IMG/VR virus record: IMGVR_UViG_3300032315_001694
From: a virus
Lineage: Duplodnaviria; Heunggongvirae; Uroviricota; Caudoviricetes
Strand: one strand, 5' to 3'
Length of the DNA stretch: 64,000 nucleotides
Shown piece after piece: positions 2,216 to 64,000 of the stretch (positions within the stretch are counted from its first letter, which is position 1; the number at the start of each line of letters is the position of its first letter). Made by a program: the position numbers and the translations under genes. Under the pieces are notes generated by a model. The model was not told the origin of the DNA, made no database searches, and saw nothing but the letters and a program-made list of their open reading frames with translations.

Positions 2216-2260
2216 GATGTTGCATGTATTTTGAATTTATATATTCTTTAACTACATTTG

Positions 2261-3181: not shown

Positions 3182-3191
3182 AACATATATA

Positions 3192-27164: not shown

Positions 27165-27476
27165 ATGGCAGTAAAAGTAACAGATGCAACTTTCAAAGAT
27201 TTCACAAGTAATGGAGTATCTTTAGTTGACTTCAAAGCTGAGTGGTGCAATCCTTGCAAGGCACTATCTCCAATAGTTGAAGAACTATCGAATGAATATG
27301 ATAATGTTAGAATTGGAAAGGTTGATGTGGATGAAAATCCAGAAACATCAAAACAATTAGGAATTCGTTCTATCCCAACAATTTTAATCTATAAAGATGG
27401 TCAAATTGTTGAGAAACACGTAGGTGGAGCATCTAAGGCACAATTAAAGTCTTTGATTGATAAACACCTTAACTAA
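27165..27476 (+). CDS. trxA: thioredoxin
   Basis: WCNPCK active site (variant of WCGPCK); 103 aa. Confidence 0.75.
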   Translation: MAVKVTDATFKDFTSNGVSLVDFKAEWCNPCKALSPIVEELSNEYDNVRIGKVDVDENPETSKQLGIRSIPTILIYKDGQIVEKHVGGASKAQLKSLIDKHLN

Positions 27477-30649: not shown

Positions 30650-31054
30650 ATGTCTCTTAAAGAAACAATCAATGCTGACTTCATGAAGGCCTTCAAAGCG
30701 AAGAAGATGGAGTTAAAATCTTTTCTTGGAACCTTGAAAGGTGAAATTCAAAATATTGAGAAAAACTCAATGGTAGAAAACCTTTCAGATGAAGAAGTTA
30801 TCAAAATCTTAAACAAATTTGCTAAAAACTGCAAGGAAAATATCCGTTTAGCTAATGATGAAAAATCAAAAGTTGAATTGGAAGTAATAGAATCATACTT
30901 ACCAAAACAACTTTCAGCTGAAGAAATTCAATCTAAAATTGAAGCTTTAGTTGCCTCTGGTGTTAAAAACATTGGTCAAATCATGAAAGAGTTTTCAACT
31001 CTTCCAGCTGACAAGAAAATTGTCTCTGAAATGGCTAAAAAGGCACTTGTTTAG
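30650..31054 (+). CDS. GatB/YqeY-domain protein
   Basis: MSLKETINADFMKAFKAKK...LSDEEVIKILNKFAK...ESYLPKQLSAEEIQSKIEALVASGVKNIGQIMKEF closely parallels bacterial YqeY (MSLKE..., EEYLPKQLSEEE). Confidence 0.65.
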   Translation: MSLKETINADFMKAFKAKKMELKSFLGTLKGEIQNIEKNSMVENLSDEEVIKILNKFAKNCKENIRLANDEKSKVELEVIESYLPKQLSAEEIQSKIEALVASGVKNIGQIMKEFSTLPADKKIVSEMAKKALV

Positions 31055-36513: not shown

Positions 36514-37088
36514 TGACTAACGACTACGAAAATTACGCTAAAGGACTCTACAAAAAACTAGATAAGTCTCAATTAATTGAGAAAGACAATGAAGAGTTTA
36601 GTAAACACTTCAAACTTTGGAACTACTTTGATTATGATGATACTCTTGAAAGATTAGATGGTGTTGTTGCTAAATCAACTAAATTATGGACACCGGGAAA
36701 AGTATTTCTATATGAAAAACTGATAACTGATTATACAACTGGTCAAAAAAAATTATATTATCCAAAGATCGGACTTTATCTTAATTCACTTCCTTGTGAC
36801 CAAACCGTAGAAGTTGAATGGGTAGATTGGCGAAGAACATGGGAATATAATAGGACTTATGAGTGGACTAATGATAAAGGTGAAATTAAAACCACTGGTG
36901 ATTTTTCCCTTCTACCAACACAAGTCCAAAGTTTGCCAATTTGGCATGATTATCTTTTAATCTATGGAGTTTGGGATAAACTTCCTAGTTGGAAAGAACT
37001 TCGTAAACATTACGATAGAACTTGGTGGTTTCATAAAACAATTCAAGATAAAAGAGATATAACAATCAATAAATTAATAAATGGCTAA
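36513..37088 (+). CDS. hypothetical protein
   Basis: 191 aa, Trp-rich. Confidence 0.4.
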   Translation: MTNDYENYAKGLYKKLDKSQLIEKDNEEFSKHFKLWNYFDYDDTLERLDGVVAKSTKLWTPGKVFLYEKLITDYTTGQKKLYYPKIGLYLNSLPCDQTVEVEWVDWRRTWEYNRTYEWTNDKGEIKTTGDFSLLPTQVQSLPIWHDYLLIYGVWDKLPSWKELRKHYDRTWWFHKTIQDKRDITINKLING

Positions 37089-37608
37089 AAAATTCGTAAA
37101 AAAAGAACGAAAACACAAAATAAACGGTGAGGTCCGTTTTCCTGAGGTGAGGATTATAGGTGAACACAATGGACAACTTATGTCTTCATTAGAAGCATTC
37201 AAGATTGCCCAAGAACAAGGACTAGATTTAGTTCTTATCAATGAGAATGCCAATCCACCAATTGTTAGAATTGAGGATTATGGTAAATTCATTTATGATC
37301 AAGAAAAGAGAGAAAAAGAAGCTAAAAAGAATGTTCACAAAACTCAATTAAAAGAGATATCGCTTTCTTTAAATATTACCGACCATGATTTAGGAACTAA
37401 ATCTAAAAAGGCTTTAGAGTTTCTAGAAGATGGTGATAAAGTTAAACTCTCACTCTTGATGAAAGGTCGTCAAAACGTCATGCGAGAGAATGGTGAGATA
37501 GTTATGTTAAAGTTTGCTCAACTTGTTGAAAATTTTGGAATACCAGAAGCTTTGCCCAAGCTAGAAGGAAACAGATGGAACATGACAATCAAACCAAAAA
37601 AGAAATAA
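37081..37608 (+). CDS. infC: translation initiation factor IF-3 homolog
   Basis: INGEVRFPEVRIIGEHNGQLM...GLDLVLINENANPPIVRIEDYGKFIYDQEKREKEAKKN...EISLSLNITDHDLGTKSKKALEFLEDGDKVKLSLLMKGRQ matches both the N- and C-domain of IF-3. Confidence 0.8.
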   Translation: MAKKFVKKERKHKINGEVRFPEVRIIGEHNGQLMSSLEAFKIAQEQGLDLVLINENANPPIVRIEDYGKFIYDQEKREKEAKKNVHKTQLKEISLSLNITDHDLGTKSKKALEFLEDGDKVKLSLLMKGRQNVMRENGEIVMLKFAQLVENFGIPEALPKLEGNRWNMTIKPKKK

Positions 37609-40188: not shown

Positions 40189-40917
40189 ATGAATTACGGA
40201 AAAGACTTTAAAAAATTCGCACTTAGTCAAGGCATCTCTTCTACATCACTTGATGCTTTTGAAAACTCAATGACACCGCAAATCATCGAGGAAAGAAAGC
40301 TAAATGCTATATCTATGTCAGTTTTTGACAGATTGATGATGGAAAGAACAATATGGATTTGTTCACCAATCAATAGTCAAATGGCATCAATTATTCAAGC
40401 TCAACTAATTTATCTAGATTCTTTAGAAAAAAAAGATATTACAATACATTGTGATAGTCCGGGTGGTTCGGTAATGGCGGGATTGGGAATAATAGATGTG
40501 ATGAATTATATTAAATCCGATGTTGCTACAATAAATACAGGGTTATGTGCTTCGATGGGAGCAATGATACTTTCAGCCGGACAAAAGGGTAAAAGGAGTT
40601 CGTTATTATTTTCAAGAACAATGATACACCATGTTTCTTCATCTACATCCGGAACAGTAGATGATCAGAGAATTTCTTTAATGGAATCTGAAAAATACAA
40701 TTTTCTTTTAATGAAAATGTTAGCTCGAAACTGTGGTAAAACTTTTGATGAAATACACGACTCTTCAAGAAGGGATAAGTGGTTGAATTCTGATGAATCT
40801 TTAGAATTTGGCATAATTGATGAAATAATCGGACTTGATAAAAATGAAAGTATCACTAAGACGATGGAAGGGTTTGATGAATATTATCAAAAGGAAGTAA
40901 TGATGAGAAATAACTAA
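40189..40917 (+). CDS. clpP: ClpP-family (S14) serine protease
   Basis: ICSPINSQMASIIQAQLIYL...HCDSPGGSVMAGLGIIDVM...INTGLCASMGAMILSAGQKGKRSSLLFSRTMIHH aligns with the ClpP Ser-His-Asp core. Confidence 0.7.
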   Translation: MNYGKDFKKFALSQGISSTSLDAFENSMTPQIIEERKLNAISMSVFDRLMMERTIWICSPINSQMASIIQAQLIYLDSLEKKDITIHCDSPGGSVMAGLGIIDVMNYIKSDVATINTGLCASMGAMILSAGQKGKRSSLLFSRTMIHHVSSSTSGTVDDQRISLMESEKYNFLLMKMLARNCGKTFDEIHDSSRRDKWLNSDESLEFGIIDEIIGLDKNESITKTMEGFDEYYQKEVMMRNN

Positions 40918-46772: not shown

Positions 46773-47189
46773 ATGATTAAACAAGGAAATACCGTAAAGG
46801 TACATTACACAGGTAGATTAGAAGATAATTCAGTATTCGATTCTTCTAACGGCAGAGAGCCAATTGAGTTTGAAGTTGGTACTCAACAAGTAATCGAAGG
46901 ATTTGAAACAGCAGTTATCGGCCTTAACAAAGGCGAAAAAACTACTGTGACTATTCCTTCTGATAAAGCTTATGGAGAGTCAAGAAATGAACTTATCCAA
47001 CAAATACCAAGAAGCCAAGTTCCACAAGATGTAACAGTTGGTTCACAATTACAAGGCGTAGATCCTCAAGGACAACCATTCACGGTAACCGTAACTGATG
47101 TTAATGAGAGTTTTGTAACTATTGATGCTAATCATCCACTAGCTGGAAAAACTCTTATATTCGATCTAGAGGTAGTTGATTTCGTGTAA
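46773..47189 (+). CDS. FKBP-type peptidyl-prolyl cis-trans isomerase (SlyD/FkpB-like)
   Basis: GNTVKVHYTGRLEDNSVFDSS...EFEVGTQQVIEGFETAVIGLNKGEKTTVTIPSDKAYGE plus IF-domain insert. Confidence 0.7.
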   Translation: MIKQGNTVKVHYTGRLEDNSVFDSSNGREPIEFEVGTQQVIEGFETAVIGLNKGEKTTVTIPSDKAYGESRNELIQQIPRSQVPQDVTVGSQLQGVDPQGQPFTVTVTDVNESFVTIDANHPLAGKTLIFDLEVVDFV

Positions 47190-47471: not shown

Positions 47472-49016
47472 TTAGTTACAATCGTAACAACTAATATTAC
47501 CTCGACCGTCACAATTTCCACATTCAAAATTACCTCGACCACGACAGTCAGAGCATTCTATTTCTCCATTTCCATTACAGTCTTCACAATTGTTATTTCC
47601 GTTTCCTGAGCAATCTGGACATTCTATTTCATTTCCTTCTTCATCTTCAATGTTTCCTGATCCATCACAGTTGCTACATTCAATATCACCTGATCCTGAA
47701 CAATCATTACAACTAATTTCACCTGATCCTGAACACTCATCACAATCAACTTCACCATTTCCATAACAATCGCTACATTCAATCTCACCATTACCACCAC
47801 AAGTTTCACAAGATGATGAGTGACCACCACCAGTATCTTCTAATGTTACATAGTCTCCTCTTTGTTGTTCACTACTTAATATTCCTCTACCTTCTTGAAA
47901 ATATTTCAAAGTATCTAAGTAAGGATAGTTTGAGTAATCTTTTTTATCTAAATTTACAGTTAAATCTAAATTAACATTTGATCCATCTGGAGCATAAGCT
48001 TTATTATTACCACCACTATTGTTATAGTATTTAGAATACCAACCATTTTCTTTTGCATAATCTCTAAATAATTGAACATCTGAATCATTTATTACATAGA
48101 TTCTATCCATGAATTTTTTACCATCAGTTAGAGTCCAAAGTAAAGCTCTTCCTGTTATTTTATCTGGATCATCTTGTGATTTGAATATAACTAAACTAAC
48201 TTGTTCTGGATTAGCAGTATAAATTTCTAACCAACTCTTTGAGGCAACTGCCATACAAGATGAACCTAAAGTACCAGATCTTTGGTAATATCTATCATAA
48301 TGATACCAATAAGCTATATCAGATCCTTTTACTTCTTCAAAGAAAGAAAACTTATCATTTAATTTATCAATAGTTGCTTTGTAAAGATTTACAAATAATT
48401 CAAGATCTTTATCCGTAAACGCGCCAATTAGAGAAGGTGTAGTAACAGCAGCAGCTTTTAAAAGAGCTCTTACACCTCTACCTACTCCAATTTCTTGTCT
48501 GTTTTTAGACCATACTTGTTTTAACTTCTCATCAACACTTCTTAATTTTTCTACATTATAAACACCTTGTCCATCTGTAAATTTAATCCAAGCATAAGTT
48601 TTACCTGATGTTTCAGAAGTTATTTTTTTAATAACCTCACCTATTTCAGTTGAGTTTGGTGTATAAACATCACCTTCAGGTACATATCCTAGTTTATCAA
48701 ATAATTCTTGATTAGACTCAGAGTGTTTTAACCAACCACCACCAGATCCTACGAATCTAACAGTTTCTTTAGTATCACCAAGTATTTCTTGTGCCTTTCT
48801 ATCTGGTGTGAATGATATTTTATCATTCTTACTTAAATCTATATCAAAATAGTTTGATTGTGTAGTAATGTCTTTATTTTCAGTATCTAATAAAGCTTTA
48901 GAAATTGGATGGTCTATTTTAGTAAGTGCTTTTCTAAATTTATCAGAGAAAATCACATCAGATTCTAGTACTAATTCCAATGATTCATTAATGAAGTCTG
49001 AATATCTTTTTAACAT
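47472..49016 (-). CDS. N-motif family paralog (MLKRYSDFINES) with C-terminal array of about 12 CxxCxGxG zinc-finger-like repeats
   Basis: N-terminal signature; body homologous to 31105..32973; C-terminus CETCGGNGEIECSDCYGNGEVDCDECSGSGEISCNDCSGSGDIECSNCDGSG... is DnaJ-type CxxCxGxG periodicity. Confidence 0.55.
   Translation of the reverse strand: MLKRYSDFINESLELVLESDVIFSDKFRKALTKIDHPISKALLDTENKDITTQSNYFDIDLSKNDKISFTPDRKAQEILGDTKETVRFVGSGGGWLKHSESNQELFDKLGYVPEGDVYTPNSTEIGEVIKKITSETSGKTYAWIKFTDGQGVYNVEKLRSVDEKLKQVWSKNRQEIGVGRGVRALLKAAAVTTPSLIGAFTDKDLELFVNLYKATIDKLNDKFSFFEEVKGSDIAYWYHYDRYYQRSGTLGSSCMAVASKSWLEIYTANPEQVSLVIFKSQDDPDKITGRALLWTLTDGKKFMDRIYVINDSDVQLFRDYAKENGWYSKYYNNSGGNNKAYAPDGSNVNLDLTVNLDKKDYSNYPYLDTLKYFQEGRGILSSEQQRGDYVTLEDTGGGHSSSCETCGGNGEIECSDCYGNGEVDCDECSGSGEISCNDCSGSGDIECSNCDGSGNIEDEEGNEIECPDCSGNGNNNCEDCNGNGEIECSDCRGRGNFECGNCDGRGNISCYDCN
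47480..47830. repeat. about 24-nt periodic repeats encoding CxxCxGxG modules
   Basis: Reiterated tg(t/c)...gg(a/t)aatgg / gattgtga motifs visible at DNA level. Confidence 0.6.
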
Positions 49017-49230: not shown

Positions 49231-49571
49231 TAATACAAACCTCAATTCGGTTTACGGAGTCCTAAGATAGAAATATCGGAAAAGATACGCAAGACCTCGT
49301 GAAAGTAAAGGCGTAAATTGAATTGATTTTTAAAAAATATTTACAAAAAAGTTTGGTGGTGTAAAAAATCCACCTTATCTTTGTAAAAGAAATCAAAATT
49401 AACAAAAAGGGACTTAAATCCTATAATATATACTGAAATGAAAAATCTAAATCTAAATATGAATAATCTCTTGAACATGGTGAATACGTTATGTATTAGA
49501 ACCAAGAGTTCGGGTTATGCCAAATTTAGATTTATGTAAATGACTGTACACAAAAACTAAACCTAACAAAA

Positions 49572-49607
49572 AACCCGAACTCGTAAAAAAGTTCGGGTTT
49601 TTTTGTT
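49572..49607 (+). terminator. rho-independent terminator (aacccgaac/gttcgggtt plus T7)
   Basis: 9-bp stem followed by tttttttg; upstream copy of agttcgggtt at 49509-49518 could form an alternative pairing. Confidence 0.55.
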
Positions 49608-49765: not shown

Positions 49766-49855
49766 GGTCCTGTGGCGAAAATGGCAGAAACGCATCAGAC
49801 TTAAAATCTGATACCCAAGAGGTAAACGTTGTGGGTTCGACTCCCACCAGGATCA
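49766..49855 (+). tRNA. tRNA-Leu (anticodon TAA), type II
   Basis: Acceptor ggtcctg/caggatc; Leu-type D-arm gtggcgaaaatggcagaaacgc; anticodon stem tcaga/tctga with loop cttaaaa; 19-nt variable arm; T-arm gtggg-ttcgact-cccac. Confidence 0.65.
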
Positions 49856-49920
49856 CAAATGTGAGAGACCGTTTTTAGTTTTTAACAGGACACAAGAGTG
49901 GAATCGTAGAAAACTAAATT

Positions 49921-50003
49921 GGCCGAGTGGTGTAATGGCAGCCACGCCAGTCTAAGAATCTGGTGTCCGTGAGGACGTGAGAGTTCAAGTCTCTCCTTGG
50001 TCA
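49921..50003 (+). tRNA. type II tRNA (Leu/Ser-like); anticodon loop ctaagaa, assignment ambiguous
   Basis: Acceptor ggccgag/cttggtc (two G-U pairs); long variable arm with gtcc/ggac stem; T-arm gagag-ttcaagt-ctctc; anticodon stem has a T-T mismatch. Confidence 0.45.
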
Positions 50004-50021
50004 CAGAGTTGTTTTAAAAAT

Positions 50022-50100
50022 GCACCCGTAATCGAGGCTTCCTTCTAAGTTGCTAATCGTAGCGGAATTGAAAACGTGGGTTCGAATCCCTCCGGGTGTT
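50022..50100 (+). tRNA. tRNA-like element with canonical acceptor and T-arm but interior that does not fold into a standard D/anticodon cloverleaf by eye
   Basis: gcacccg/cgggtgt acceptor pairing 79 nt apart; T-arm gtgggttcgaatccctc. Confidence 0.3.
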
Positions 50101-50110
50101 CAAAAAATAT

Positions 50111-50191
50111 TGGTGGATAGCATAGCGGTTCATGCATCAGACTGTTAATCTGAGACTTAGGTCAACGTGGGTTCGAATCCCACTCCATCAG
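50111..50191 (+). tRNA. tRNA-Asn (anticodon GTT) with 13-nt variable region
   Basis: Acceptor tggtgga/tccatca; D-stem gcat/atgc; anticodon stem tcaga/tctga, loop ctGTTaa; T-arm gtggg-ttcgaat-cccac. Confidence 0.6.
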
Positions 50192-50200
50192 CTGAAAATA

Positions 50201-50282
50201 CGGCAAATACCAGCACATCCTGATAAGATGTAGAACTGTAATTGGTAAGTTGAAAATGTGGGTTCGAATCCCTCTTTGCCGA
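50201..50282 (+). tRNA. tRNA-like element, noncanonical interior (same architecture as 50022..50100)
   Basis: cggcaaa/tttgccg perfect 7-bp acceptor; identical T-arm gtgggttcgaatccctc; shared ttgaaaa motif before the T-stem. Confidence 0.3.
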
Positions 50283-50291
50283 CAAAAATAT

Positions 50292-50362
50292 TCCTCAGAA
50301 GCTCAGTGGCGAGCAACGTTCTGTTAAATCGTAGGAAGTCGGATCGTAACCGGCCTGGGGAG
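50292..50362 (+). tRNA. tRNA with anticodon loop ctGTTaa (Asn-like), imperfect anticodon stem
   Basis: Acceptor tcctcag/ctgggga; D-arm gctc-agtggc-gagc; T-arm gtcgg-atcgtaa-ccggc. Confidence 0.4.
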
Positions 50363-50369
50363 CAAAAAA

Positions 50370-50454
50370 GCATAGATGTCCGAGTGGCGAAGGATACGGT
50401 CTGCAAAACCGTAAGTTTAAATACTCATCGGGGGTTCGAGTCCCTCTCTATGCT
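50370..50454 (+). tRNA. tRNA-Cys (anticodon GCA) with unusual 17-nt variable region
   Basis: Acceptor gcataga/tctatgc; anticodon stem acggt/accgt, loop ctGCAaa; T-arm ggggg-ttcgagt-ccctc. Confidence 0.5.
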
Positions 50455-50462
50455 CAAAGTAT

Positions 50463-50548
50463 AGTCCTGTAGCTCAGTTGGTTGAGAGCGCTTGTTTTAC
50501 ACACAAGAGGCCACAAGGTTAACATCGGTTCGAATCCGGTCAGGACTA
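50463..50548 (+). tRNA. tRNA-Val (anticodon TAC) with 16-nt variable region
   Basis: Acceptor agtcctg/caggact; D-arm gctc-agttggttga-gagc; anticodon stem cttgt/acaag, loop ttTACac; T-arm atcgg-ttcgaat-ccggt. Confidence 0.55.
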
Positions 50549-50554
50549 CAAAAT

Positions 50555-50627
50555 TGTCAGTTAGCTCATTTGGTAGAGCACCACTCTGATAAAGTGGAGG
50601 TGCCGGGATCGTAACCCGGACTGACAA
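50555..50627 (+). tRNA. tRNA-Ile (anticodon GAT)
   Basis: Acceptor tgtcagt/actgaca; D-arm gctc-atttggta-gagc; anticodon stem ccact/agtgg, loop ctGATaa; 5-nt variable; T-arm ccggg-atcgtaa-cccgg. Confidence 0.7.
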
Positions 50628-50633
50628 CAATAA

Positions 50634-50714
50634 GCCAAGGTGGGACAGTGGTTGACTCCACCTCACTTGTAATGAGGAACACAAACATCGTCGGTTCGAA
50701 TCCGACCCTTGGCT
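50634..50714 (+). tRNA. tRNA-Thr (anticodon TGT) with 12-nt variable region
   Basis: Acceptor gccaagg/ccttggc; anticodon stem cctca/tgagg, loop ctTGTaa; T-arm gtcgg-ttcgaat-ccgac. Confidence 0.55.
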
Positions 50715-50721
50715 CAAAAAT

Positions 50722-50795
50722 AGTTCTGTAGCTCAGTTGGTTAGAGCGTTTGGTCGACATCCAAAAGGTCACTGGTTCGAATCCAGTTAGGACTA
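50722..50795 (+). tRNA. tRNA-Val (anticodon GAC)
   Basis: Acceptor agttctg/taggact; D-arm gctc-agttggtta-gagc; anticodon stem tttgg/ccaaa, loop tcGACat; T-arm actgg-ttcgaat-ccagt. Confidence 0.65.
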
Positions 50796-50803
50796 CAAAA
50801 AAT

Positions 50804-50876
50804 GCTGAGGTCGTATAAATGGCTATTACACACCGTTGGTATCGGTGCGACACCGGATCGTTACCGGTCTTCAGCT
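50804..50876 (+). tRNA. tRNA-Thr (anticodon GGT)
   Basis: Acceptor gctgagg/cttcagc; anticodon stem caccg/cggtg, loop ttGGTat; T-arm accgg-atcgtta-ccggt. Confidence 0.6.
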
Positions 50877-50881
50877 CAAAT

Positions 50882-50953
50882 GCTCTTGTAGCCCAATGTA
50901 GAGGCATACGCCTTAGAAGCGTAGTAGTATCGGTTCGATCCCGTTCAGGAGCA
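50882..50953 (+). tRNA. tRNA with anticodon TAG (Leu codon CUA) but short variable loop (class I body)
   Basis: Acceptor gctcttg/caggagc; anticodon stem tacgc/gcgta, loop ctTAGaa; 5-nt variable; T-arm atcgg-ttcgatc-ccgtt (one mismatch). Confidence 0.45.
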
Positions 50954-50958
50954 CAATT

Positions 50959-51034
50959 GCAGAAGTGGCGAAATTGGTAGTACGCGCTGAGCTCAAACCT
51001 CAGTTTTTTGTGGGTTCGAATCCCACCTTCTGTA
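50959..51034 (+). tRNA. tRNA-Leu-like (anticodon CAA) with Leu-type D-arm but short variable loop
   Basis: Acceptor gcagaag/cttctgt; D-arm gtggcgaaattggtagtacgc; anticodon stem ctgag/ctcag, loop ctCAAac; T-arm gtggg-ttcgaat-cccac. Confidence 0.5.
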
Positions 51035-51072
51035 CACGGTTAATGGAGTTCGAATGTTTTATATATACTATT

Positions 51073-51591
51073 ATGAAAGAAAAAATACTTGAACTGAGAA
51101 AAAATGGATTGAGTTATGTTGAAATACAAAAACAACTTGGATGTTCTAAATCAACTATATCCTATAACTGTAAAAAAAATGGACTGACTGATATAGGATT
51201 AAAAGATAAAAAAAGAAAATTAAGAGGAACAAAGATTTGTGAAAATTGTAATATAGAGTTTAGCTTAACTGGTATATCTAAAGATAGGATATTTTGTTGT
51301 AAAGAGTGCTATAACAAAAGTGAAAAGAAAAGAAAAGAGGGTAGAAATTTCGGATTATATTCATCACAAATACAAAAAGAAAGAAGAAGAAGTAAAAACG
51401 AAATTTATTTTTTTGAGCTGTGTAAGGAAAAATATGAAGAAGTGTTAAGTAATGAAGCAATTTTTAATGGGTGGGACGCTGATGTAATAATTGTAAATTA
51501 TAAAGTTGCTATTTTATGGAATGGAAAATGGCATTATGAAAAAATAAAAAACAACACTCTGTTAAGCAAGTTCAGAACAGAGATTCTTTAA
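51073..51591 (+). CDS. HTH plus Vsr/DUF559-like endonuclease (freestanding homing-endonuclease-like gene inside the tRNA array)
   Basis: N-terminal HTH (LSYVEIQKQLGCSKSTISY); Cys4 region; C-terminal DADVIIVNYKVAILWNGKWH resembles the Vsr/DUF559 core. The tracked ORF start at 50965 overlaps a tRNA, so the Met at 51073 is used. Confidence 0.5.
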   Translation: MKEKILELRKNGLSYVEIQKQLGCSKSTISYNCKKNGLTDIGLKDKKRKLRGTKICENCNIEFSLTGISKDRIFCCKECYNKSEKKRKEGRNFGLYSSQIQKERRRSKNEIYFFELCKEKYEEVLSNEAIFNGWDADVIIVNYKVAILWNGKWHYEKIKNNTLLSKFRTEIL

Positions 51592-51690
51592 AAATTAAAG
51601 AAATAAAATCTTGTGGATATTTACCATATGTTATTAAAGATATGGGTCGAGAAAATAAAGATTTTGTTAAAAGTGAATTTGAAAAATTAA

Positions 51691-51767
51691 CCGGATATAT
51701 ATCCTCGCTCTCATAAGGCGTAGAAAGATTAGTTGGCTTCACGGTGGTTCGATTCCACCTATCCGGA
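51691..51767 (+). tRNA. tRNA-like element with canonical acceptor and T-arm, noncanonical interior
   Basis: ccggata/tatccgg perfect acceptor; T-arm ggtgg-ttcgatt-ccacc. Confidence 0.3.
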
Positions 51768-51772
51768 CAAGT

Positions 51773-51843
51773 GGTTCCATAGTTTAATGAAAAACCTCTC
51801 GGTCCTAACGAGAGATATACGAGTTCAAATCTCGTTGGAACCC
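51773..51843 (+). tRNA. tRNA-Arg (anticodon CCT)
   Basis: Acceptor ggttcca/tggaacc; D-arm gttt-aatgaa-aaac; anticodon stem tctcg/cgaga, loop gtCCTaa; T-arm acgag-ttcaaat-ctcgt. Confidence 0.6.
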
Positions 51844-51866
51844 CTCGATAACAAAAAATAAAAATT

Positions 51867-52121
51867 ATGGAAAAACGAATCGACATTGTTAGAGATAACA
51901 CTGCAAAATTCCTACACGCAGTAGGAGGAGTCTTGTATTACAGGATTGAAACACAAAAAATGGTCTATATCTTCCCAATAGATATGAATGATAAAGAAGA
52001 TGTAGGATCAGCTAAATTTGAACCAGAACATAAGGCTATTTATCTTATGAGATATTTAAATAAAGCTATAGAAAATAACTCATTAATTTCTTATGAAAAG
52101 AAAAATACAGTATCTTTGTAA
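51867..52121 (+). CDS. hypothetical protein
   Basis: 84 aa between tRNAs and the synthetase genes. Confidence 0.35.
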   Translation: MEKRIDIVRDNTAKFLHAVGGVLYYRIETQKMVYIFPIDMNDKEDVGSAKFEPEHKAIYLMRYLNKAIENNSLISYEKKNTVSL

Positions 52122-52200
52122 AATGAAACAAATTGTAAACAGAAATAGAAATAACCGAACAGATTCCGTCTGATTAGGATATTTTTGCTCTAAAAAATAA

Positions 52201-52236
52201 CCCCATCAGATAAACTGATGGGGTTTTTTATTTTTA
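52201..52236 (+). terminator. rho-independent terminator (ccccatcag/ctgatgggg plus T-run)
   Basis: 9-bp stem, 5-nt loop, tttttt. Confidence 0.6.
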
Positions 52237-52258
52237 AAAAAATTAAAAAAGAAAGAAC

Positions 52259-53434
52259 ATGAAAATAGATATTAATAAAATTAAATTGACACCAGAAAAT
52301 TTAGGATTCAATTTTTGCCAATTTGGAAATCTAACAGATGAAATTTCAGAATGGGTTAACTATTGGGGATTTAAAACACAAAATTCAGTACAATTCACCA
52401 ATATATTAATTGATGAATCTACTAATTTTGATGAAATATTTAATTTACCAATTCAATATGAATGGATTGATGGGTTTAGTCCGAATCTAAACAAACATCT
52501 TCATATTGGACATTTATCAAATCTTGTAATAGCAAATGCTATTCAAAAATTAAATATTGGTAATAAATTTATAGCAATATTAGGAGATACTTTGGATGGA
52601 AATGTAAAGAAAACAGACGCGTTAAACTCATATTTAAACCATTGTAAAAACTTTGGATATCAAATAGATGAAACAGTATATGCTTCTAGTATGAAAATAA
52701 AGAATGATATATTAAAAGAAGGTGAAGGTGATTATTTAGGATCCAAAGTTTTTGATTTAGGTGATGAAAAAATTGTTGGAATTAAAAGTTCAGGAATGAC
52801 AACTTATTTCTATCAAGATGTTGCTTTAGCTGAATATCTTAATTCATCAACTCTATATCTAACAGGATTTGAACAAGATAATCACTTTAAATCTTTAAAG
52901 AAATTATTTCCTCAAACAAACCATATTGGATTAGGATTAGTCCAATTAGGTGGTAAAAAAATGAGTAGTAGTGAGGGGAATATAATTTATTTAGACGATT
53001 TTATAAATCATCTATTACAACTATTTAATAATGATATTCACTTGGTTTATAATATTTTAGCTGGTCAGATTTTAAAATCATCACCCGGAAGTAATAAAAC
53101 AATTGATATGAATTTAATTTCAAATCCGAAATTGTCATTGGGACTTTATTTAAGCTACACATTAGCACATATTAAGAGTTGTGGAGTTGAAACTAAAAAT
53201 ATAAATCAATACGAATCAAAAGAATTACAATTTGCTCATTTAAAATCCAAAATAAACTTAACACCAAATATTCTTTTTGAATCTTTGGTTAAACACTCAA
53301 AAAAAATTAATAAACTATATGAAACGCATTATATAAAAGACAATCAGGACAATATTGAATTGTTTTCAAATCTTATCTCAGATTTGGAATTTGGAATGAA
53401 AAATCTTGGAATGTTTTCAATAAAAAAAGTATAA
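52259..53434 (+). CDS. class I aminoacyl-tRNA synthetase catalytic core, arginyl-tRNA-synthetase-like (truncated; no obvious anticodon-binding domain)
   Basis: DGFSPNLNKHLHIGHLSNLVIANAI matches the ArgRS signature (SPN-x-AK-x-x-H-x-GHLRS-x-x-IG); KMSSS (KMSKS-like) at GGKKMSSSEGN; only 391 aa. Confidence 0.5.
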   Translation: MKIDINKIKLTPENLGFNFCQFGNLTDEISEWVNYWGFKTQNSVQFTNILIDESTNFDEIFNLPIQYEWIDGFSPNLNKHLHIGHLSNLVIANAIQKLNIGNKFIAILGDTLDGNVKKTDALNSYLNHCKNFGYQIDETVYASSMKIKNDILKEGEGDYLGSKVFDLGDEKIVGIKSSGMTTYFYQDVALAEYLNSSTLYLTGFEQDNHFKSLKKLFPQTNHIGLGLVQLGGKKMSSSEGNIIYLDDFINHLLQLFNNDIHLVYNILAGQILKSSPGSNKTIDMNLISNPKLSLGLYLSYTLAHIKSCGVETKNINQYESKELQFAHLKSKINLTPNILFESLVKHSKKINKLYETHYIKDNQDNIELFSNLISDLEFGMKNLGMFSIKKV

Positions 53435-53439
53435 AAATT

Positions 53440-54621
53440 ATGAAAGGCTGGATAAAATCAATAAGACAATCAAAAGGTTTAACCTTTATGACTATTACCG
53501 ATGGTAAAATGGACCATCAACTAACCTTAAAAGAAGGCGAATATTTAATGACTGGTGATTTAAAAGTCGGAGCCTCATTTATATCTGAAGGCACCGATTC
53601 AACTACACCTAGAGGATTACCCGAATTTGTAGTTTCTAAAATAGAAATTATAGGTACATCCGATGATGAATACCCAATACAACCAAAACATCACACACCT
53701 GAGTTTCTAAGAAGTATTCCACATCTAAGGGGTAGAGCTAAGGCTTTACAATCAACTTGGAAGGTCAGACACTACCTAACACAAGGAATTCATAGATTCT
53801 TCGAAGATGAAGGATTCTTCCAATATTACACTCCTATTATCACACATGCTGATTGTGAGGGTGCTGGTGAAACATTTGTGGCTAAATCAGATTGGATGGA
53901 AGAAAAATTAACCGTATCTGGACAATTACATGGTGAGGTCGGAATGATGTCACTGGGTAAGATTTATACCTTCTCTCCTTGTTTCAGAGCTGAAAAATCG
54001 ACCACTAAAAAACACTTATCTGAATTTTGGATGATTGAACCAGAAATGGCATTTTATGACTTAGATGAAACTATTAAGTTAGCAGAAAAGATGGTAAAAG
54101 GAGCTATATCTTATGTTATTTCTAAATCAGAATATGACTTCAAACAATTAGGTGTTGATTCATCTTTATTAACTACAATCGTTGAGAAAGATTGGATGAA
54201 AGTTTCTTATTCTGAAATAGTTAAATCATTTGGTGTAAAATGGGGTGATGATATTTCTTCAGAAATAGAGCAGAAAATTGTATCACATTACGGTGTTCCG
54301 GTTTTCGTTACACATTATCCGAAAGAATTGAAACCGTTTTATATGAAGAAAGGAGAATTTGTGGCTGATTGTTTTGATTTAATCTTTCCGGTGGTTGGTG
54401 AAATCATTGGAGGTTCTCAACGAGAAGAAGATTATCAAACTCTTAAAACTGAAATGGAAAGGTCTGAATTAGATATTGATAAAATGCAATGGTATTTAGA
54501 TACTCGTAAGTGGGGTTCTGTTCCACACTCAGGTTTTGGTTTAGGATTTGAGAGATTGCTAATGTTTATTACTGGGGCTACAAAGATTCACGATGTGATT
54601 CCTTTTCCAGTAAGCTATTAA
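53440..54621 (+). CDS. asnS: asparaginyl-tRNA synthetase (class IIb)
   Basis: N-terminal OB region (GWIKSIRQSKGLTFMTITDG); motif 2 FSPCFRAE; AsnRS-specific FWMIEPEMAF; motif 3 GSVPHSGFGLGFERL. Confidence 0.75.
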   Translation: MKGWIKSIRQSKGLTFMTITDGKMDHQLTLKEGEYLMTGDLKVGASFISEGTDSTTPRGLPEFVVSKIEIIGTSDDEYPIQPKHHTPEFLRSIPHLRGRAKALQSTWKVRHYLTQGIHRFFEDEGFFQYYTPIITHADCEGAGETFVAKSDWMEEKLTVSGQLHGEVGMMSLGKIYTFSPCFRAEKSTTKKHLSEFWMIEPEMAFYDLDETIKLAEKMVKGAISYVISKSEYDFKQLGVDSSLLTTIVEKDWMKVSYSEIVKSFGVKWGDDISSEIEQKIVSHYGVPVFVTHYPKELKPFYMKKGEFVADCFDLIFPVVGEIIGGSQREEDYQTLKTEMERSELDIDKMQWYLDTRKWGSVPHSGFGLGFERLLMFITGATKIHDVIPFPVSY

Positions 54622-54641: not shown

Positions 54642-55001
54642 TTAAAAGTATTTAGAAAACTCCTTGGATTCTTTGAACCAGGAGTTTTCTTTTGCCATTA
54701 ATTCGAAAATATTATGATTCTTTTCACACAATTCGAGAAATTGTGTAACTTGTTCTAACTCTAACTTAAACCATTCACCTTCACAACGCCATTGATTATA
54801 GTAACGATGTAAACTCGACTCTATTCTTGGTCCCCATTTAGATTCGAAAACATCAACAAGTTCTAACTCTTGTGAGTTACCAGTTTTCAATTCTTTAAGT
54901 CGTTTATTTGGATCTCTTTTAGTCCAACCGATTTTATAATAAGGACCATCTGTGTGATGAGCAGAGATTAAGTAAATCTTATACATGAAGTATATATTCA
55001 C
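54642..55001 (-). CDS. T5orf172/MUG113-type (GIY-YIG-like) domain protein
   Basis: YKIGWTKRDPNKRLKELKTGNSQELELV matches the T5orf172 domain signature. Confidence 0.55.
   Translation of the reverse strand: MNIYFMYKIYLISAHHTDGPYYKIGWTKRDPNKRLKELKTGNSQELELVDVFESKWGPRIESSLHRYYNQWRCEGEWFKLELEQVTQFLELCEKNHNIFELMAKENSWFKESKEFSKYF
54657..54694. terminator. hairpin plus T-run downstream of asnS, between convergent genes
   Basis: aactcc.../...ggagtt stem followed by ttttcttttg; overlaps the 3' end of the minus-strand ORF. Confidence 0.4.
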
Positions 55002-61177: not shown

Positions 61178-64000
61178 TTATATTTCTATAATTGAAACCA
61201 TAATATCTCGAACTCTTGCCGTATTTGTTCCTGCACCAACACTTGCTAAACTAATATCCACCCATATTGCAGTTCCAACAGATAGTCCAGATACAATACC
61301 ATTCAAAGTAAATGGAAAAATCTCGCCCGCATCCCGATTGAACATCCGAATTAATGTTCCAACAGTTGTACCTGTTAAAGCCGCCCCATTTGCAGGAGCA
61401 GCTCCGGTACCATATCTCATTTGGACATTAGCACCTCGACTATTTGTAGCATTATCACCATCTCCAGATAAAATTATCATTATCTTTCCAGTTCTTGTTG
61501 GTGTAAAACTTACTGTACTACCAAGACCCATCATAACACCAGCAGTCGATGTTGTTGTATTTGGATTTGCTGGTAAGAAATATCCAGTTGTATTAACTAC
61601 AGATCCTGTTGGACCTTGGAATCCTTGATTACCCTGGAATCCTTGATTGCCCTGGAATCCTTGTGGTCCGGTTGGACCTTGAATACCTTGTAAACCCTGG
61701 AATCCTTGAGGACCTGTTGGGCCTTGGAAACCTTGATTACCTTGGAATCCTTGTGGACCAGTTGGACCTTGACGGCCTTGAAACCCTTGTGGTCCTTGGA
61801 ATCCTTGATTACCTTGGAACCCTTGAGGACCAGTTGGGCCTTGAATACCTTGTAAACCTTGTGGTCCTTGGAATCCTTGATTACCTTGGAACCCTTGAGG
61901 ACCAGTTGGTCCTTGAATACCTTGTAAACCCTGAGGACCTTGGAATCCTTGATTACCTTGGAACCCTTGAGGACCAGTTGGACCTTGAAGACCTTGGAAA
62001 CCTTGAGGACCTTGAAAACCTTGATCACCCTGAAATCCTTGTGAACCTGTTGGTCCTTGAATACCTTGTAAACCTTGAGGTCCTTGGAACCCTTGATTAC
62101 CCTGGAACCCTTGAGGACCTGTTGGTCCTTGAATACCCTGTAAACCTTGAGGACCTTGGAAACCTTGATCACCTTGAAATCCTTGCGGACCAGTTGGGCC
62201 TTGGAATCCTTGGTTACCCTGGAATCCTTGAGAACCTTGAGCACCAACAGCACCCACAGCACCAGCTAGATTTATAGTCCAAGATGAATATGTTTTACCA
62301 CCTGAATATGTTGCTGATGTGGAATCTATAATTATCTCACCAGAATTAGAATTATATGAAACTACTGAACCTTGGAAATAATTATCCACATCATAAGATG
62401 TAATTGTTGACTGGTTTGTAGTATAAGATAAAGCTGTTCCGATTATTAATGAAGCAGTTGTGCCTACATCTGGAATCTCAAATGTAGTTGTACTTGTTGA
62501 TTGATATCTATCACTTACACCTTGGAAACCTTGAGGACCTACTAGACCTTGTGGGCCTTGATCACCCTTTAAACCTTGAAATCCTTGAGTACCAGTTGGA
62601 CCTTGAACTCCTTGGAATCCTTGGAATCCTTGATCGCCTTTTAAACCTTGGAATCCTTGAGGACCAGTTGGACCCTGAACTCCTTGGAATCCTTGATTAC
62701 CTTGGAATCCTTGAGGGCCTTGAACTCCTTGGAATCCTTGAGGACCTTGAACTCCTTGAGGACCAGTAGGACCTTGGAATCCTTGATCACCTTTAAAACC
62801 TTGGAAACCTTGAGAACCAGTTGGACCTTGAACTCCTTGGAAACCTTGATTACCTTGGAATCCTTGAGGGCCTTGAACTCCTTGGAATCCTTGATTACCT
62901 TGGAATCCTTGTGGACCAGTTGGTCCTTGGAAACCTTGATTACCTTGAAAACCTTGAGGTCCAGTTGGGCCTTGAACTCCTTGGAACCCTTGATTACCTT
63001 GGAATCCTTGAGGACCAGTTGGACCTTGAAACCCTTGATTACCTTGGAATCCTTGAGGACCAGTTGGACCTTGGAAACCTTGATTACCTTGGAAACCTTG
63101 TGGACCAGTTGCACCATTAATACCAATTGTACCATTGGTACCTTGAGGACCAGTCGGACCTTGAGGACCTGTATTAACTGGTTGAATTTGCCAAGTAGCA
63201 CTTGTAGCAGAAATAGCTACTAAGGTTTGACCAATACTTGGAGTAGATCCTGTTATAATTACTGGATTTCCCGCAGTTTTTAAGGCGTTTGCCTCAACAT
63301 AGTTAGATGACCCAGTAATTGTTTTATTTAATATAGAAGCTGTAGCTACTAATAACGTATCTAATTTTATTTTATCTGAAGCATCCATAAATCCAGCTGA
63401 TACTTGAGATGCGGTAGCATGTAAACTACCACCACTCAAATTACCGTGAGCGTGAATGTGATCCATTCTAGCAAAAGCATTCTGAACACCAATTAAATTA
63501 GTAGTTCCAATTGTTGATGGTGTTCCAGTTGTTAAAGCATCTAATCCAAGTGGTAAATGCCTTGAAGCATGTGTTGATATATTGACACCATTAATTGTAC
63601 TAACTCCAGTAATTGAATTACTTGCCATAATTAGATTACCTGACATACCTCTATTACCATTAACAAGTAAATATTGTGTGTGATCATCCTTATCAAGATT
63701 TAGTAATGATGAGTGATCCGCTGAGGCATTTATACCAGTAGCTTTGAAACCAATAACAGGTCTCTGATCTCTTATTTCAACTATATTTGAATTTCCCTCT
63801 TGTACTATAATACCTGCAACTAATGTAACACCTTCTATAAAATAACTTGGTGGAGTTGGTATATTACCATCTTGAGCATCAATTAGATTCTGATGCTGTT
63901 CTTGAGCATATACCATAAAGTATTTTTCTTCTGCATTATCACCTATGACATATAATGAATGTTTGGCATAATATGATGATGATAATCCAATTAAAGAATT
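61178..64000 (-). CDS. collagen-like triple-helix-repeat protein (putative fiber protein); reading frame stays open past the window edge, so likely 5'-partial
   Basis: Two long Gly-X-Y blocks (GPQGFQGNQGFQGPTGPQ...) separated by a non-collagenous segment; no in-frame stop between 63917 and 64000 on the minus strand. Confidence 0.7.
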   Translation of the reverse strand, partial: NSLIGLSSSYYAKHSLYVIGDNAEEKYFMVYAQEQHQNLIDAQDGNIPTPPSYFIEGVTLVAGIIVQEGNSNIVEIRDQRPVIGFKATGINASADHSSLLNLDKDDHTQYLLVNGNRGMSGNLIMASNSITGVSTINGVNISTHASRHLPLGLDALTTGTPSTIGTTNLIGVQNAFARMDHIHAHGNLSGGSLHATASQVSAGFMDASDKIKLDTLLVATASILNKTITGSSNYVEANALKTAGNPVIITGSTPSIGQTLVAISATSATWQIQPVNTGPQGPTGPQGTNGTIGINGATGPQGFQGNQGFQGPTGPQGFQGNQGFQGPTGPQGFQGNQGFQGVQGPTGPQGFQGNQGFQGPTGPQGFQGNQGFQGVQGPQGFQGNQGFQGVQGPTGSQGFQGFKGDQGFQGPTGPQGVQGPQGFQGVQGPQGFQGNQGFQGVQGPTGPQGFQGLKGDQGFQGFQGVQGPTGTQGFQGLKGDQGPQGLVGPQGFQGVSDRYQSTSTTTFEIPDVGTTASLIIGTALSYTTNQSTITSYDVDNYFQGSVVSYNSNSGEIIIDSTSATYSGGKTYSSWTINLAGAVGAVGAQGSQGFQGNQGFQGPTGPQGFQGDQGFQGPQGLQGIQGPTGPQGFQGNQGFQGPQGLQGIQGPTGSQGFQGDQGFQGPQGFQGLQGPTGPQGFQGNQGFQGPQGLQGIQGPTGPQGFQGNQGFQGPQGLQGIQGPTGPQGFQGNQGFQGPQGFQGRQGPTGPQGFQGNQGFQGPTGPQGFQGLQGIQGPTGPQGFQGNQGFQGNQGFQGPTGSVVNTTGYFLPANPNTTTSTAGVMMGLGSTVSFTPTRTGKIMIILSGDGDNATNSRGANVQMRYGTGAAPANGAALTGTTVGTLIRMFNRDAGEIFPFTLNGIVSGLSVGTAIWVDISLASVGAGTNTARVRDIMVSIIEI
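61600..63170. repeat. DNA-level tandem 9/18/27-nt periodic repeats encoding the collagen Gly-X-Y blocks
   Basis: Reiterated ccttggaatccttgattaccttggaa units; explains spurious all-frame ORFs on both strands. Confidence 0.8.

Follow-up and report, generated by a model that had tools for sequence, protein, structure and literature searches.

The closest described systems to the one considered here are the translation genes of the huge phages of Al-Shayeb et al. 2020 (Nature 578:425), which, in the passages of that work drawn on here, are reported to carry up to 67 tRNAs per genome and up to 15 aminoacyl-tRNA synthetases, along with IF-3, S1 and SmpB (PMC7162821). According to the same passages, the phage tRNAs are distinct from those of the host and the phage synthetases are proposed to charge the phage's own variants, some huge phages carry genes for re-ligating tRNAs cut by host defences, the synthetases were identified by annotation and confirmed with TIGRFAM hidden Markov models (HMMs), and the genomes of more than 634 kb are Mahaphages with Bacteroidetes as predicted hosts. 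The present analysis concerns positions 49766 to 54621 of a 64,000-nucleotide (nt) stretch of viral DNA (IMG/VR record IMGVR_UViG_3300032315_001694), the whole of which is referred to below as the 64-kb window. Here a tRNA array and two synthetase genes, one for a miniature arginyl-tRNA synthetase (ArgRS) and one for a compact asparaginyl-tRNA synthetase (AsnRS), all lie on the plus strand, and the region runs from the start of the first tRNA to the end of the AsnRS stop codon, limits which the original prediction, made from the letters of the window, had placed exactly. The region probably represents a module by which a huge phage of the Mahaphage type supplies and charges tRNAs of its own; as judged from sequence comparison and a structural model, the miniature ArgRS in it would most likely be a working enzyme. 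As far as the cited passages go, a module of this kind is already published for huge phages, such that the locus adds one example to the pattern and leaves the picture unchanged; the miniature ArgRS is a new variant within it, and the architecture of the tRNAs is possibly so.

The phage origin of the region is supported by its nearest records at the protein level (tblastn), which are two uncultured phage genomes of about 635 kb, LR745206 (634,780 bp) and LR756504 (636,363 bp), and by IMG/VR viral contigs with related loci, which reach 676 kb. Both genomes we take to be Mahaphage genomes of Al-Shayeb et al. The likeness to that group, so far as its published description was available, extends to the same categories of gene, to a layout of array followed by synthetases, and to orthologues of 51-72 % identity (ArgRS 72 % and AsnRS 67 % in LR745206, ArgRS 51 % in LR756504). 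In other words, the nearest relatives are huge phage genomes with a common gene order at the locus. A megablast search of the region against the phage collection matched a single 56-nt fragment, and there is therefore no close sequenced relative in that collection at the DNA level; an identical locus was found on a 73.9-kb ENA metagenome scaffold. The two synthetase genes, which stand 5 nt apart, are as follows.

52259-53434, plus strand: predicted miniature arginyl-tRNA synthetase, 391 residues, with a reduced Add-1 domain (about residues 1-65), a catalytic core and a shortened DALR domain (about residues 285-391)
53440-54621, plus strand: predicted asparaginyl-tRNA synthetase, 393 residues, compact, with an OB-fold anticodon-binding domain and a class II core (NCBIfam, Pfam)

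That the first of these proteins derives from ArgRS, and is not some other Rossmann protein, is indicated by its fold, by profile-profile alignment and by its best NCBIfam family. An AlphaFold2 model built from 30 family members has a predicted local distance difference test score (pLDDT) of 91.8 and a predicted template modelling score (pTM) of 0.91, and a Foldseek search of this model against the PDB returned ArgRS structures in all of the top 20 places (E 7e-16 to 1.5e-11), with CysRS next at 2.6e-10; in fold comparison of the 391-residue protein, MetRS gave 21.6 and CysRS 20.9. The profile-profile alignment to canonical ArgRS runs from end to end with a probability of 99.9 %, at E values of 2.3e-34 against metagenomic canonical enzymes and 4.5e-32 with E. 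coli ArgS included. Searches with HMMs against PDB sequences gave marginal ArgRS matches, restricted to the HIGH region (E 0.14 with the single sequence, 5.7e-4 with the family profile), and among the PHROGs no family matches the protein beyond a 25-residue stretch. The family is a large one, with at least 626 clusters at 90 % identity and E <= 1e-3, of which the best 120 are almost all 387-413 residues long and come from contigs of up to 640 kb. Moreover, an exhaustive profile search of 1.84 billion representatives (50 % identity) gave 1047 matches at E <= 1e-3, mostly of 380-420 residues, in which canonical ArgRS enzymes (~528-558 residues) appear just at E values of ~1e-14 to 1e-17. Some family members are called 'arginyl-tRNA synthetase' by the automatic annotation of the Joint Genome Institute (JGI).

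The original prediction regarded this protein as an ArgRS catalytic core apparently devoid of an anticodon-binding domain. This reading of the domains was wrong, because the profile alignment spans the whole enzyme and compact relatives match DALR_1: hhalign covers residues 280-390 against the canonical DALR domain, and two relatives (P0173 and P0190) pass the Pfam DALR_1 model at 44.9 and 34.9 bits (gathering score 22.3) over their C-terminal 80-110 residues. A Pfam search of the window protein itself gives no direct hit to DALR or to Arg_tRNA_synt_N; in the alignment both the Add-1 and the DALR domain are present, the one reduced and the other shortened. On alignment and model, then, the protein appears to be a scaled-down copy of the entire ArgRS and not a bare catalytic core. 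With the canonical enzymes (E. coli ArgS, 577 residues; T. thermophilus, 1IQ0; yeast, 1BS2) it shares the fold, the order of Add-1, Rossmann core and DALR, the arginine-binding residues, the HIGH motif, the Y/F-x-N motif for A20, and the C-terminal YxxYxxA and final LGhxxx, but it is about 30 % shorter and is without parts of Add-1, the insertion and loops. Set against E. coli ArgS, Add-1 has lost ~36 residues at its N-terminus and the core ~65 residues following the GDWG strand (E. coli ~164-230), and several loops of 10-20 residues are gone from the core and from DALR. The deletion after the GDWG strand presumably corresponds to 'Ins-1' in Cavarelli's nomenclature. At 391 residues this would be the smallest ArgRS that we are aware of, and no such reduced architecture was found in the open-access literature searched, which included passages of huge- and jumbo-phage papers. 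If active, the enzyme would define a minimal ArgRS, show which parts of the canonical chain are dispensable and offer a compact candidate for the engineering of synthetase/tRNA pairs.

The residues expected to bind the substrates can be followed by alignment to E. coli ArgS, with roles taken from Bi et al. 2014 (PMC3956977) and conservation from an alignment of 30 family members, in all of which the residues described here as invariant are found. Those which bind the guanidinium group (E. coli D118, Y313 and D317) correspond to D71, Y183 and D187, and those which bind the main chain (N123 and Q341) to N76 and Q206; all five are invariant. The HIGH motif, HVGH in E. coli (H129..H132), becomes H82-I-G84-H85, of which H82, G84 and H85 are invariant, and the KMSK-type loop, FKTR(383) in E. 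coli and MSSR or MSTR in the other canonical sequences used, becomes K234-M235-S236-S-S, of which K234, M235, S236 and S238 are invariant. The pocket for A20 of the tRNA (E. coli F82-I83-N84) aligns with high posterior confidence to F46-T47-N48, where position 46 is F or Y throughout and N48 is invariant. The E. coli pocket residues are printed as 'Y84-N82' in PMC3956977, whereas the K-12 translation used here reads G-P-G-F82-I-N84. On the side of the RNA, the D-loop signature G18-G19-A20 persists in the tRNA-Arg genes that lie near the enzyme gene, as seen when the window copy, tRNA-Arg(CCU), is aligned with 22 related phage tRNA-Arg genes; this copy has a short D-loop in which G and A still stand at the 18/19-20 positions, and has C73.

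The surroundings of the gene were compared over +/-5-6 kb in 45 related loci, 43 of them from IMG/VR. tRNA genes occur within 5 kb of the compact ArgRS gene in 20 of the 43 IMG/VR loci, and 13 of 20 distinct tRNA-bearing loci (LR745206 and the window being counted) have a tRNA-Arg within that distance, in about 10 of these 13 at about 100-600 nt from the gene; no p-value is attached to this linkage since the loci are related to one another. The association of ArgRS with tRNA-Arg is thus frequent but not obligatory. In LR745206 a 19-tRNA array ending in Arg(cct) is followed first by AsnRS and then by ArgRS, whereas the window has ArgRS first, and in LR756504 (locus L002) the compact ArgRS follows tRNAs which include Arg(acg) and Arg(tct). 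A tblastn search for canonical ArgRS found none in LR745206 or LR756504, such that the compact form is the sole ArgRS homologue detected in these genomes at that sensitivity. In the window, as had been predicted, both synthetases adjoin genes for their cognate tRNAs. The presence of the genes, the fold, the conservation of motifs and residues, the synteny with cognate tRNAs and the size of the family are all matters of observation. A strict linkage of AsnRS to ArgRS was considered and rejected, the two being adjacent among the 45 related loci only in L001 and L013, in reversed order.

Some of the relatives carry a third small synthetase, a compact ThrRS, at L002 3207-4367, L013 2123-3244 and L035 3638-4750. 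The L002 protein has 386 residues, and its match to TIGR00418 (476 bits) is confined to profile positions 171-559, from which it follows that the N-terminal TGS and editing regions are absent; mischarging with serine is to be expected of a ThrRS that cannot edit. Its gene stands among tRNAs, directly downstream of tRNA-Thr(ggt) and with tRNA-Asn and tRNA-Thr(tgt) following, and in L013 and L035 the ThrRS likewise lies beside the same tRNA array.

Several results weigh against a working ArgRS module. The curated thresholds for ArgRS are not reached, the window protein scoring 41.1 bits on TIGR00456 argS (cutoff 261.65) and 21.6 bits on PF00750 tRNA-synt_1d (cutoff 23.3); its LR745206 orthologue has 26.4 bits on PF00750, and argS, although the best NCBIfam family for 30 of 30 aligned relatives, scores far below its cutoff in all of them. 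About 30 % of the canonical chain (391 residues as against about 530-600) is absent, including the insertion after the GDWG strand, and catalytic competence is for that reason not guaranteed. Four conserved arginines of the canonical enzyme are replaced in 30 of 30 family members: R134 by S87 (after HIGH), R383 by S238 (KMSSR to KMSSS) and R466 by H304 (in DALR), all three invariant in the canonical set, and R324, a second-shell residue conserved in that set which props D118, by L194. In E. coli ArgS the R324A change lowers the affinity for arginine ~4-fold (PMC3956977). The tRNA-Arg(CCU) of the window is itself atypical, in its short D-loop and C73, and serves AGG, a minor codon with 10 % of the Arg codons. 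No tRNA lies within 5 kb of the gene in 23 of the 43 IMG/VR loci, and AsnRS adjoins ArgRS in just two other distinct relatives, L001 and L013, which are the closest to the window.

The low scores, the replaced arginines and the lost insertion would also suit an ArgRS paralogue that no longer aminoacylates for translation, serving instead as a tRNA-binding decoy, as had been suggested for the truncated enzyme, or activating arginine or a related compound for some other acceptor, the analogy being with truncated relatives of the synthetases, GluQRS and MshC among them. GluQRS/YadB and MshC are, like the miniature ArgRS, small class I Rossmann enzymes of synthetase descent; GluQRS, however, has no anticodon-binding domain, whereas the miniature ArgRS keeps one, together with the A20-pocket motif and the residues of the arginine pocket. 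Moreover, a decoy would have no need of the invariance seen in the five arginine-binding residues, HIGH and the KMS loop, the gene repeatedly adjoins tRNA-Arg genes, and the protein is the sole ArgRS homologue detected in two complete relatives with several tRNA-Arg genes nearby. With no variation among the 30 aligned members in the catalytic and substrate residues, a decoy is rejected as the principal explanation, and a paralogue with a role outside translation is, on the whole, very improbable. The balance favours what would be a catalytically competent, arginine-specific enzyme still reading A20 and the anticodon. The protein also illustrates that annotation by thresholds undercounts phage synthetases; indeed, at ~41 bits against a TIGRFAM cutoff of 262 bits, the miniature ArgRS may have escaped the count of Al-Shayeb et al., given the method described in the passages cited.

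The second protein presents fewer difficulties. It contains the FWMIEPEMAF motif on which its assignment as AsnRS was originally based and passes both asnS equivalog cutoffs of NCBIfam (NF003037, 433.3 bits, cutoff 414; TIGR00457, 414.6 bits, cutoff 342.6). The alternative of an AspRS, which had been named as the finding that would tell against that assignment, is not borne out, as the best AspRS model, aspartate--tRNA(Asn) ligase, gives 215.8 bits, below its cutoff of 353, and LysRS 83 bits. The Pfam tRNA-synt_2 domain (PF00152) is matched at 9.6e-65 and the OB fold (PF01336) at 23.8 bits, just short of the 27-bit gathering score; PF01336 hits are precomputed for most of the close AsnRS relatives. 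Residues 2-391 align to profile positions 22-444 of 451. The protein therefore shares with canonical AsnRS its class II motifs and N-terminal OB fold, but is about 50-60 residues shorter and falls within a tight, phage-borne family of ~392 residues on contigs of 444-723 kb. By sequence it is an ordinary, though compact, member of the AsnRS family.

The tRNA array upstream of the two genes was predicted to hold 16 elements. The array is real, and 16 elements are recovered with the ARAGORN threshold lowered to 90 % (-ps90), but the default settings give 12, all on the plus strand between 49766 and 51844, and the Rfam tRNA model (RF00005, gathering score 29 bits) gives 14. These 14, which score 29.5-65.9 bits, are the same 12 at 42-66 bits together with an Asn(gtt) at 50292-50362 (42 bits) and an element at 51691-51767 (29.5 bits); the remaining two, at 50022-50101 and 50201-50283, fall below the gathering score. 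The array therefore comprises 13 solid elements, one borderline element and two that are tRNA-like or degenerate. Both a tRNA-Asn(GTT) and, as the last element, a tRNA-Arg(CCT) were predicted and are found by ARAGORN and Rfam. The features of the array and its borders, all on the plus strand, are as follows.

49568-49603, plus strand: hairpin with T-run, terminator-like, readable on both strands, 14-15 bp stem; closes the upstream unit, ~160 nt before the array
49766-49856, plus strand: tRNA-Leu(UAA), 91 nt, long variable arm (ARAGORN; Rfam 56.7 bits)
49921-50004, plus strand: tRNA-Leu(AAG), 84 nt, long variable arm (ARAGORN; Rfam 43.9 bits)
50022-50101, plus strand: element X, tRNA-like, probably degenerate (ARAGORN -ps90 only, 8-nt 'gcta' loop; no Rfam tRNA hit)
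50111-50192, plus strand: tRNA-Asn(GUU), 82 nt, structured long variable arm, U1-A72, G73 (ARAGORN; Rfam 59.3 bits)
50201-50283, plus strand: tRNA-like, GAU anticodon loop, long variable region (ARAGORN -ps90 only, as 50192-50283, Ile gat-like; no Rfam hit)
50292-50362, plus strand: second tRNA-Asn(GUU), 72 nt, ordinary short variable loop (Rfam 42 bits; ARAGORN -ps90)
50370-50455, plus strand: tRNA-Cys(GCA), 86 nt, long variable arm, U73 (ARAGORN; Rfam 53.7 bits)
50463-50549, plus strand: tRNA-Val(UAC), 87 nt, long variable arm (ARAGORN; Rfam 64 bits)
50555-50628, plus strand: tRNA-Ile(GAU), 74 nt (ARAGORN; Rfam 58.9 bits)
50634-50715, plus strand: tRNA-Thr(UGU), 82 nt, long variable region (ARAGORN; Rfam 57 bits)
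50722-50796, plus strand: tRNA-Val(GAC), 75 nt (ARAGORN; Rfam 65.9 bits)
50804-50877, plus strand: tRNA-Thr(GGU), 74 nt (ARAGORN; Rfam 42.1 bits)
50882-50954, plus strand: tRNA-Leu(UAG), 73 nt, short variable loop (atypical for bacterial tRNA-Leu), A73 (ARAGORN; Rfam 52.5 bits)
50959-51035, plus strand: tRNA-Leu(CAA), 77 nt, short variable loop, A73 (ARAGORN; Rfam 57.4 bits)
51043-51591, plus strand: open reading frame (ORF) of 182 residues inside the array, with an N-terminal helix-turn-helix and CxxC pairs (Pfam HTH_38, HTH_23)
51691-51767, plus strand: tRNA-Met(CAU)-like, borderline, long variable region, poor D-arm (Rfam 29.5 bits; ARAGORN -ps90 as 51679-51768)
51773-51844, plus strand: tRNA-Arg(CCU), 72 nt, last of the array, 415 nt upstream of the ArgRS gene (ARAGORN; Rfam 54.9 bits)
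51867-52121, plus strand: small ORF of 84 residues between array and terminator (ORF list; PHROG 20427, a family of unknown function, at 1.2e-9; called on the ENA scaffold)
52199-52225, plus strand: strong hairpin with T-run, terminator-like, 11-bp stem with 6 GC pairs, between the tRNA unit and the synthetase pair

The terminator-like hairpins at 49568-49603 and 52199-52225 suggest that the tRNA block is transcribed apart from the synthetase pair; hairpins of this kind number 8 in the region as against 2.6 expected. A scan for sigma-70 promoters gave 25 sites, with 28.1 expected by chance, and does not cover promoters of the Bacteroidota type. Weak Rfam matches to Thr_leader, a trpB motif, a plastid UTR and a tmRNA 3' fragment were rejected, being far below gathering and accounted for by terminator hairpins or tRNA T-arms (Thr_leader by the hairpin at 49568-49603). 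The array tRNAs cover codons of Leu, Ile, Val, Thr, Asn, Cys and Arg (AGG). Over 68 ORFs and 18,389 codons, all of them from the phage, codon usage is typical of a 30 % GC genome: Asn accounts for 6.6 % of codons, 80 % of which are AAT, and among the Arg codons AGA takes 59 % and AGG just 10 %. For AGA, the main Arg codon, the window holds no convincing tRNA. The 740 nt between tRNA-Leu(CAA) and tRNA-Arg(CCU) contain the 182-residue ORF, which is called as a gene on the ENA scaffold, matches PHROG 2308 at 3.9e-10 and has weak matches to HNH-endonuclease and transposase families; its product may be of a mobile DNA-binding or endonuclease type. At the same position of the array, L013 and L035 have gaps of ~1.1-1.3 kb, that of L013 being filled by the compact ThrRS gene (2123-3244).

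The two elements below the Rfam threshold, 50022-50101 and 50201-50283, each have a perfect 7-bp acceptor stem and a T-arm, lack a normal D-arm and have a common 3' half, TTGAAAAYGTGGGTTCGAATCCCTC, which includes a T-stem with a U.U mismatch. By RNAfold the acceptor stem of the second starts at 50201, although ARAGORN -ps90 reports 50192. Element X, the first of the two, contains CTTCTAA and occupies the slot that tRNA-Arg(UCU) has in relatives L013 and L035. Among the relatives there is an 86-nt tRNA-Ile(gat) in L035 which passes the ARAGORN defaults, and long tRNA-Met genes of 83-93 nt in L013 and L023. Both elements are tRNA-like and probably degenerate; they could be pseudogenes or unusual tRNAs without a D-arm.

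The form of the remaining tRNAs was not expected. In bacteria, long variable arms are generally taken to be confined to Leu, Ser, Tyr and Sec tRNAs. In the window they are carried by tRNAs for Asn (50111-50192), Cys (50370-50455), Val(UAC) (50463-50549) and Thr(UGU) (50634-50715), which score 54-64 bits in Rfam, and the long tRNAs for these amino acids measure 82-90 nt; in the relatives, Ile, Met, Trp, His and Arg(UCU) tRNAs have long arms too. A survey of the window and related loci with ARAGORN defaults gave 149 distinct tRNAs, 21 of which have an anticodon other than Leu, Ser or Tyr and yet are 81 nt or longer: six Asn, four Thr(tgt), three Met, two Cys, two Trp, and one each of Arg(tct), His, Ile and Val(tac). 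Conversely, of the 24 tRNA-Leu genes, 12 do not exceed 78 nt (73-78 nt). Long counterparts of tRNA-Thr(UGU), of 85-88 nt, occur in L002, L013 and L035, and in several loci one anticodon is found on both a short and a long tRNA (Asn in the window; Asn and Arg(tct) in L001). Sites in the relatives with long-arm tRNAs or short tRNA-Leu are as follows.

L001: 2321-2410, 2664-2750
L002: 4374-4554
L013: 690-779, 1801-1885
L035: 353-439, 584-669, 1468-1642

The long tRNA-Asn has orthologues of 87-90 nt in five relatives, and the stem of its variable arm reads GAC/GTC, GAAT/ATTC, GAGC/GCTC, GAGGG/CCCTC or GTC/GAC across the six genomes, such that the sequence varies while complementarity is kept. The arm is therefore maintained, since its stem covaries, as judged by eye from alignments without a formal statistic; in the same tRNA-Asn alignment the acceptor and T helices are 100 % paired, with compensatory changes. 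Given the confinement of bacterial long arms to Leu, Ser, Tyr and Sec, this clade-wide mixing of tRNA bodies is unusual, and long arms on Asn, Thr, Cys and Val tRNAs, with short tRNA-Leu, contradict the textbook class II rule for bacteria. The mixing is not described in the open-access literature searched, in which huge- and jumbo-phage papers were represented by passages. Phages of this kind offer a natural test bed for the role of the variable arm in identity, processing or evasion of defence.

An obvious question with such bodies is whether the anticodon is still matched by the amino acid. By analogy, the long-arm Asn, Thr, Cys and Val tRNAs could be charged by SerRS, LeuRS or TyrRS and so place Ser, Leu or Tyr at those codons, which would bear out the suggestion that the phage recodes translation. 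Bodies resembling class II with anticodons that are not of class II are indeed present and conserved, and bacterial allo-tRNAs likewise have a long variable arm on the anticodon of a normally short-arm amino acid. The same holds, with a long structured variable arm, for nematode nev-tRNAs, which serve as a precedent (PMC3333845). In contrast to both, the identity elements of the phage tRNAs examined, discriminator and acceptor features among them, follow the anticodon (U1-A72 with G73 in 4 of 6 long tRNA-Asn; U73 in long tRNA-Cys; A20 in tRNA-Arg), and a cognate synthetase is encoded nearby, AsnRS being next door; standard decoding is for these reasons more likely than recoding. The stems of the variable arms, moreover, are just 3-5 bp. 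Under the standard code (code 11) the ORFs are long and continuous and give strong full-length family matches, and conserved Asn and Arg positions read normally, with the invariant Asn residues in place (N48 and N76 of ArgRS; the AsnRS motifs). Recoding is rejected as the principal explanation on account of the identity elements and the full-length matches, and is scarcely credible here.

The same tRNAs have been weighed as a means of counter-defence. On this account the unusual phage tRNAs (class-II-bodied Asn, Thr, Cys and Val, short Leu, and the odd tRNA-Arg) would escape host anticodon nucleases or other defences that deplete tRNA, and the miniature synthetases would charge tRNAs that host enzymes handle poorly; the biochemistry overlaps with that of a supply and charging module, and it is the purpose which differs. 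The numbers of long and short bodies given above (21 of 149 and 12 of 24), the pairing of a short and a long tRNA of one anticodon and the maintained, covarying arms are in keeping with it, as is the published background, in the passages seen, of phage tRNAs distinct from those of the host and of re-ligation genes in some huge phages (PMC7162821). Against it, the anticodon loops are ordinary in look, A20 is retained in the tRNA and its pocket in the enzyme, which suggests ordinary rules of recognition, neither a host of this phage nor a nuclease target is known, and nothing here links the variable arms to nuclease resistance. Counter-defence is compatible with the data, which lend it no specific support, and we regard it as unlikely, if worth bearing in mind. 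A further and decidedly doubtful reading is that the miniature ArgRS, the ~392-residue AsnRS and the editing-less ThrRS of the relatives have co-evolved with rebuilt tRNAs (class-II-bodied Asn, Thr, Cys, Val, Ile, Met, Trp, His and Arg, class-I-bodied Leu, and the D-arm-poor elements) into a private translation channel, pairing preferentially with one another and insulated from host nucleases or synthetases; if true, it would provide natural, compact, quasi-orthogonal synthetase/tRNA pairs.

To return to the tRNA supply and charging module, which remains the preferred explanation, its expression, the aminoacylation itself, the range of substrates and the physiological reason for it are what we infer from the foregoing. 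Two units would be transcribed, the first being the array, with tRNAs for Leu, Asn, Ile, Val, Thr and Cys, the Met-like element and Arg(AGG), between the two terminator-like hairpins, and the second the pair of genes for miniature ArgRS and compact AsnRS. The 391-residue ArgRS would bind L-arginine through the same five residues as the E. coli enzyme, would recognise tRNA-Arg through the A20 pocket in its reduced Add-1 domain and through its shortened DALR domain, and would charge the phage's own tRNA-Arg species and possibly those of the host. The AsnRS would charge the two phage tRNA-Asn(GUU) and so serve an AT-rich genome. Together with IF-3, SmpB, the S1-domain protein and YqeY, the module might then keep phage translation going when the tRNAs or synthetases of the host run short, are degraded or come under attack.

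These further genes lie elsewhere in the window, as had been predicted from the translations, and Pfam bears out every one of them.

12340-13449, minus strand: S1-domain protein (Pfam)
29429-29857, plus strand: SmpB (Pfam, 175 bits)
30650-31054, plus strand: YqeY-like protein (GatB/YqeY domain), free-standing (Pfam, 63.7 bits)
37081-37608: IF-3, both domains (Pfam)
40189-40917: ClpP (Pfam)
46773-47189: FKBP isomerase (Pfam)

The YqeY domain is a tRNA-binding helper when fused to some GlnRS enzymes; that the free-standing YqeY-like protein could assist the domain-reduced synthetases in trans is pure speculation. ARAGORN finds no transfer-messenger RNA (tmRNA) gene anywhere in the 64-kb window, and the partner RNA of SmpB must therefore lie elsewhere in the genome or be supplied by the host. 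The description of this set as unusually rich for a bacteriophage holds in comparison with ordinary phages but not with huge phages, for which it is the published norm in the passages cited (PMC7162821).

Several other genes of the window may be recorded. Directly after the AsnRS gene, and convergent with it, a minus-strand gene at 54642-55001 encodes a T5orf172/MUG113-domain (GIY-YIG-like) protein with PHROG matches to endonuclease and homing endonuclease families, another possible mobile nuclease beside the module. Directly upstream of the array, on the opposite strand, lies a gene (47472-49016, minus strand) for a 514-residue protein, the C-terminal ~120 residues of which consist of repeated zinc-finger units of the CxxCxGxG type; it has weak matches to the DnaJ central domain, Anti-TRAP and BSD2 and none among the PHROGs. 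Two more genes are identified by Pfam, one for an NAD-dependent DNA ligase with BRCT, the other for an SPFH/Band 7 protein; for a sigma-70-like factor and a thioredoxin the identification was made by eye, from the translations only. As a set these four genes have the coordinates 23632-25464, 26507-27124, 27165-27476 and 9059-10954. Finally, an ORF of 912 residues (61178-63916, minus strand) falls within a locally GC-richer stretch at 60-64 kb (0.34-0.40 as against about 0.30), and many overlapping ORFs in alternative frames with repetitive 'KVSKV/KDSKV' translations suggest a collagen-like or other triplet-repeat coding region.

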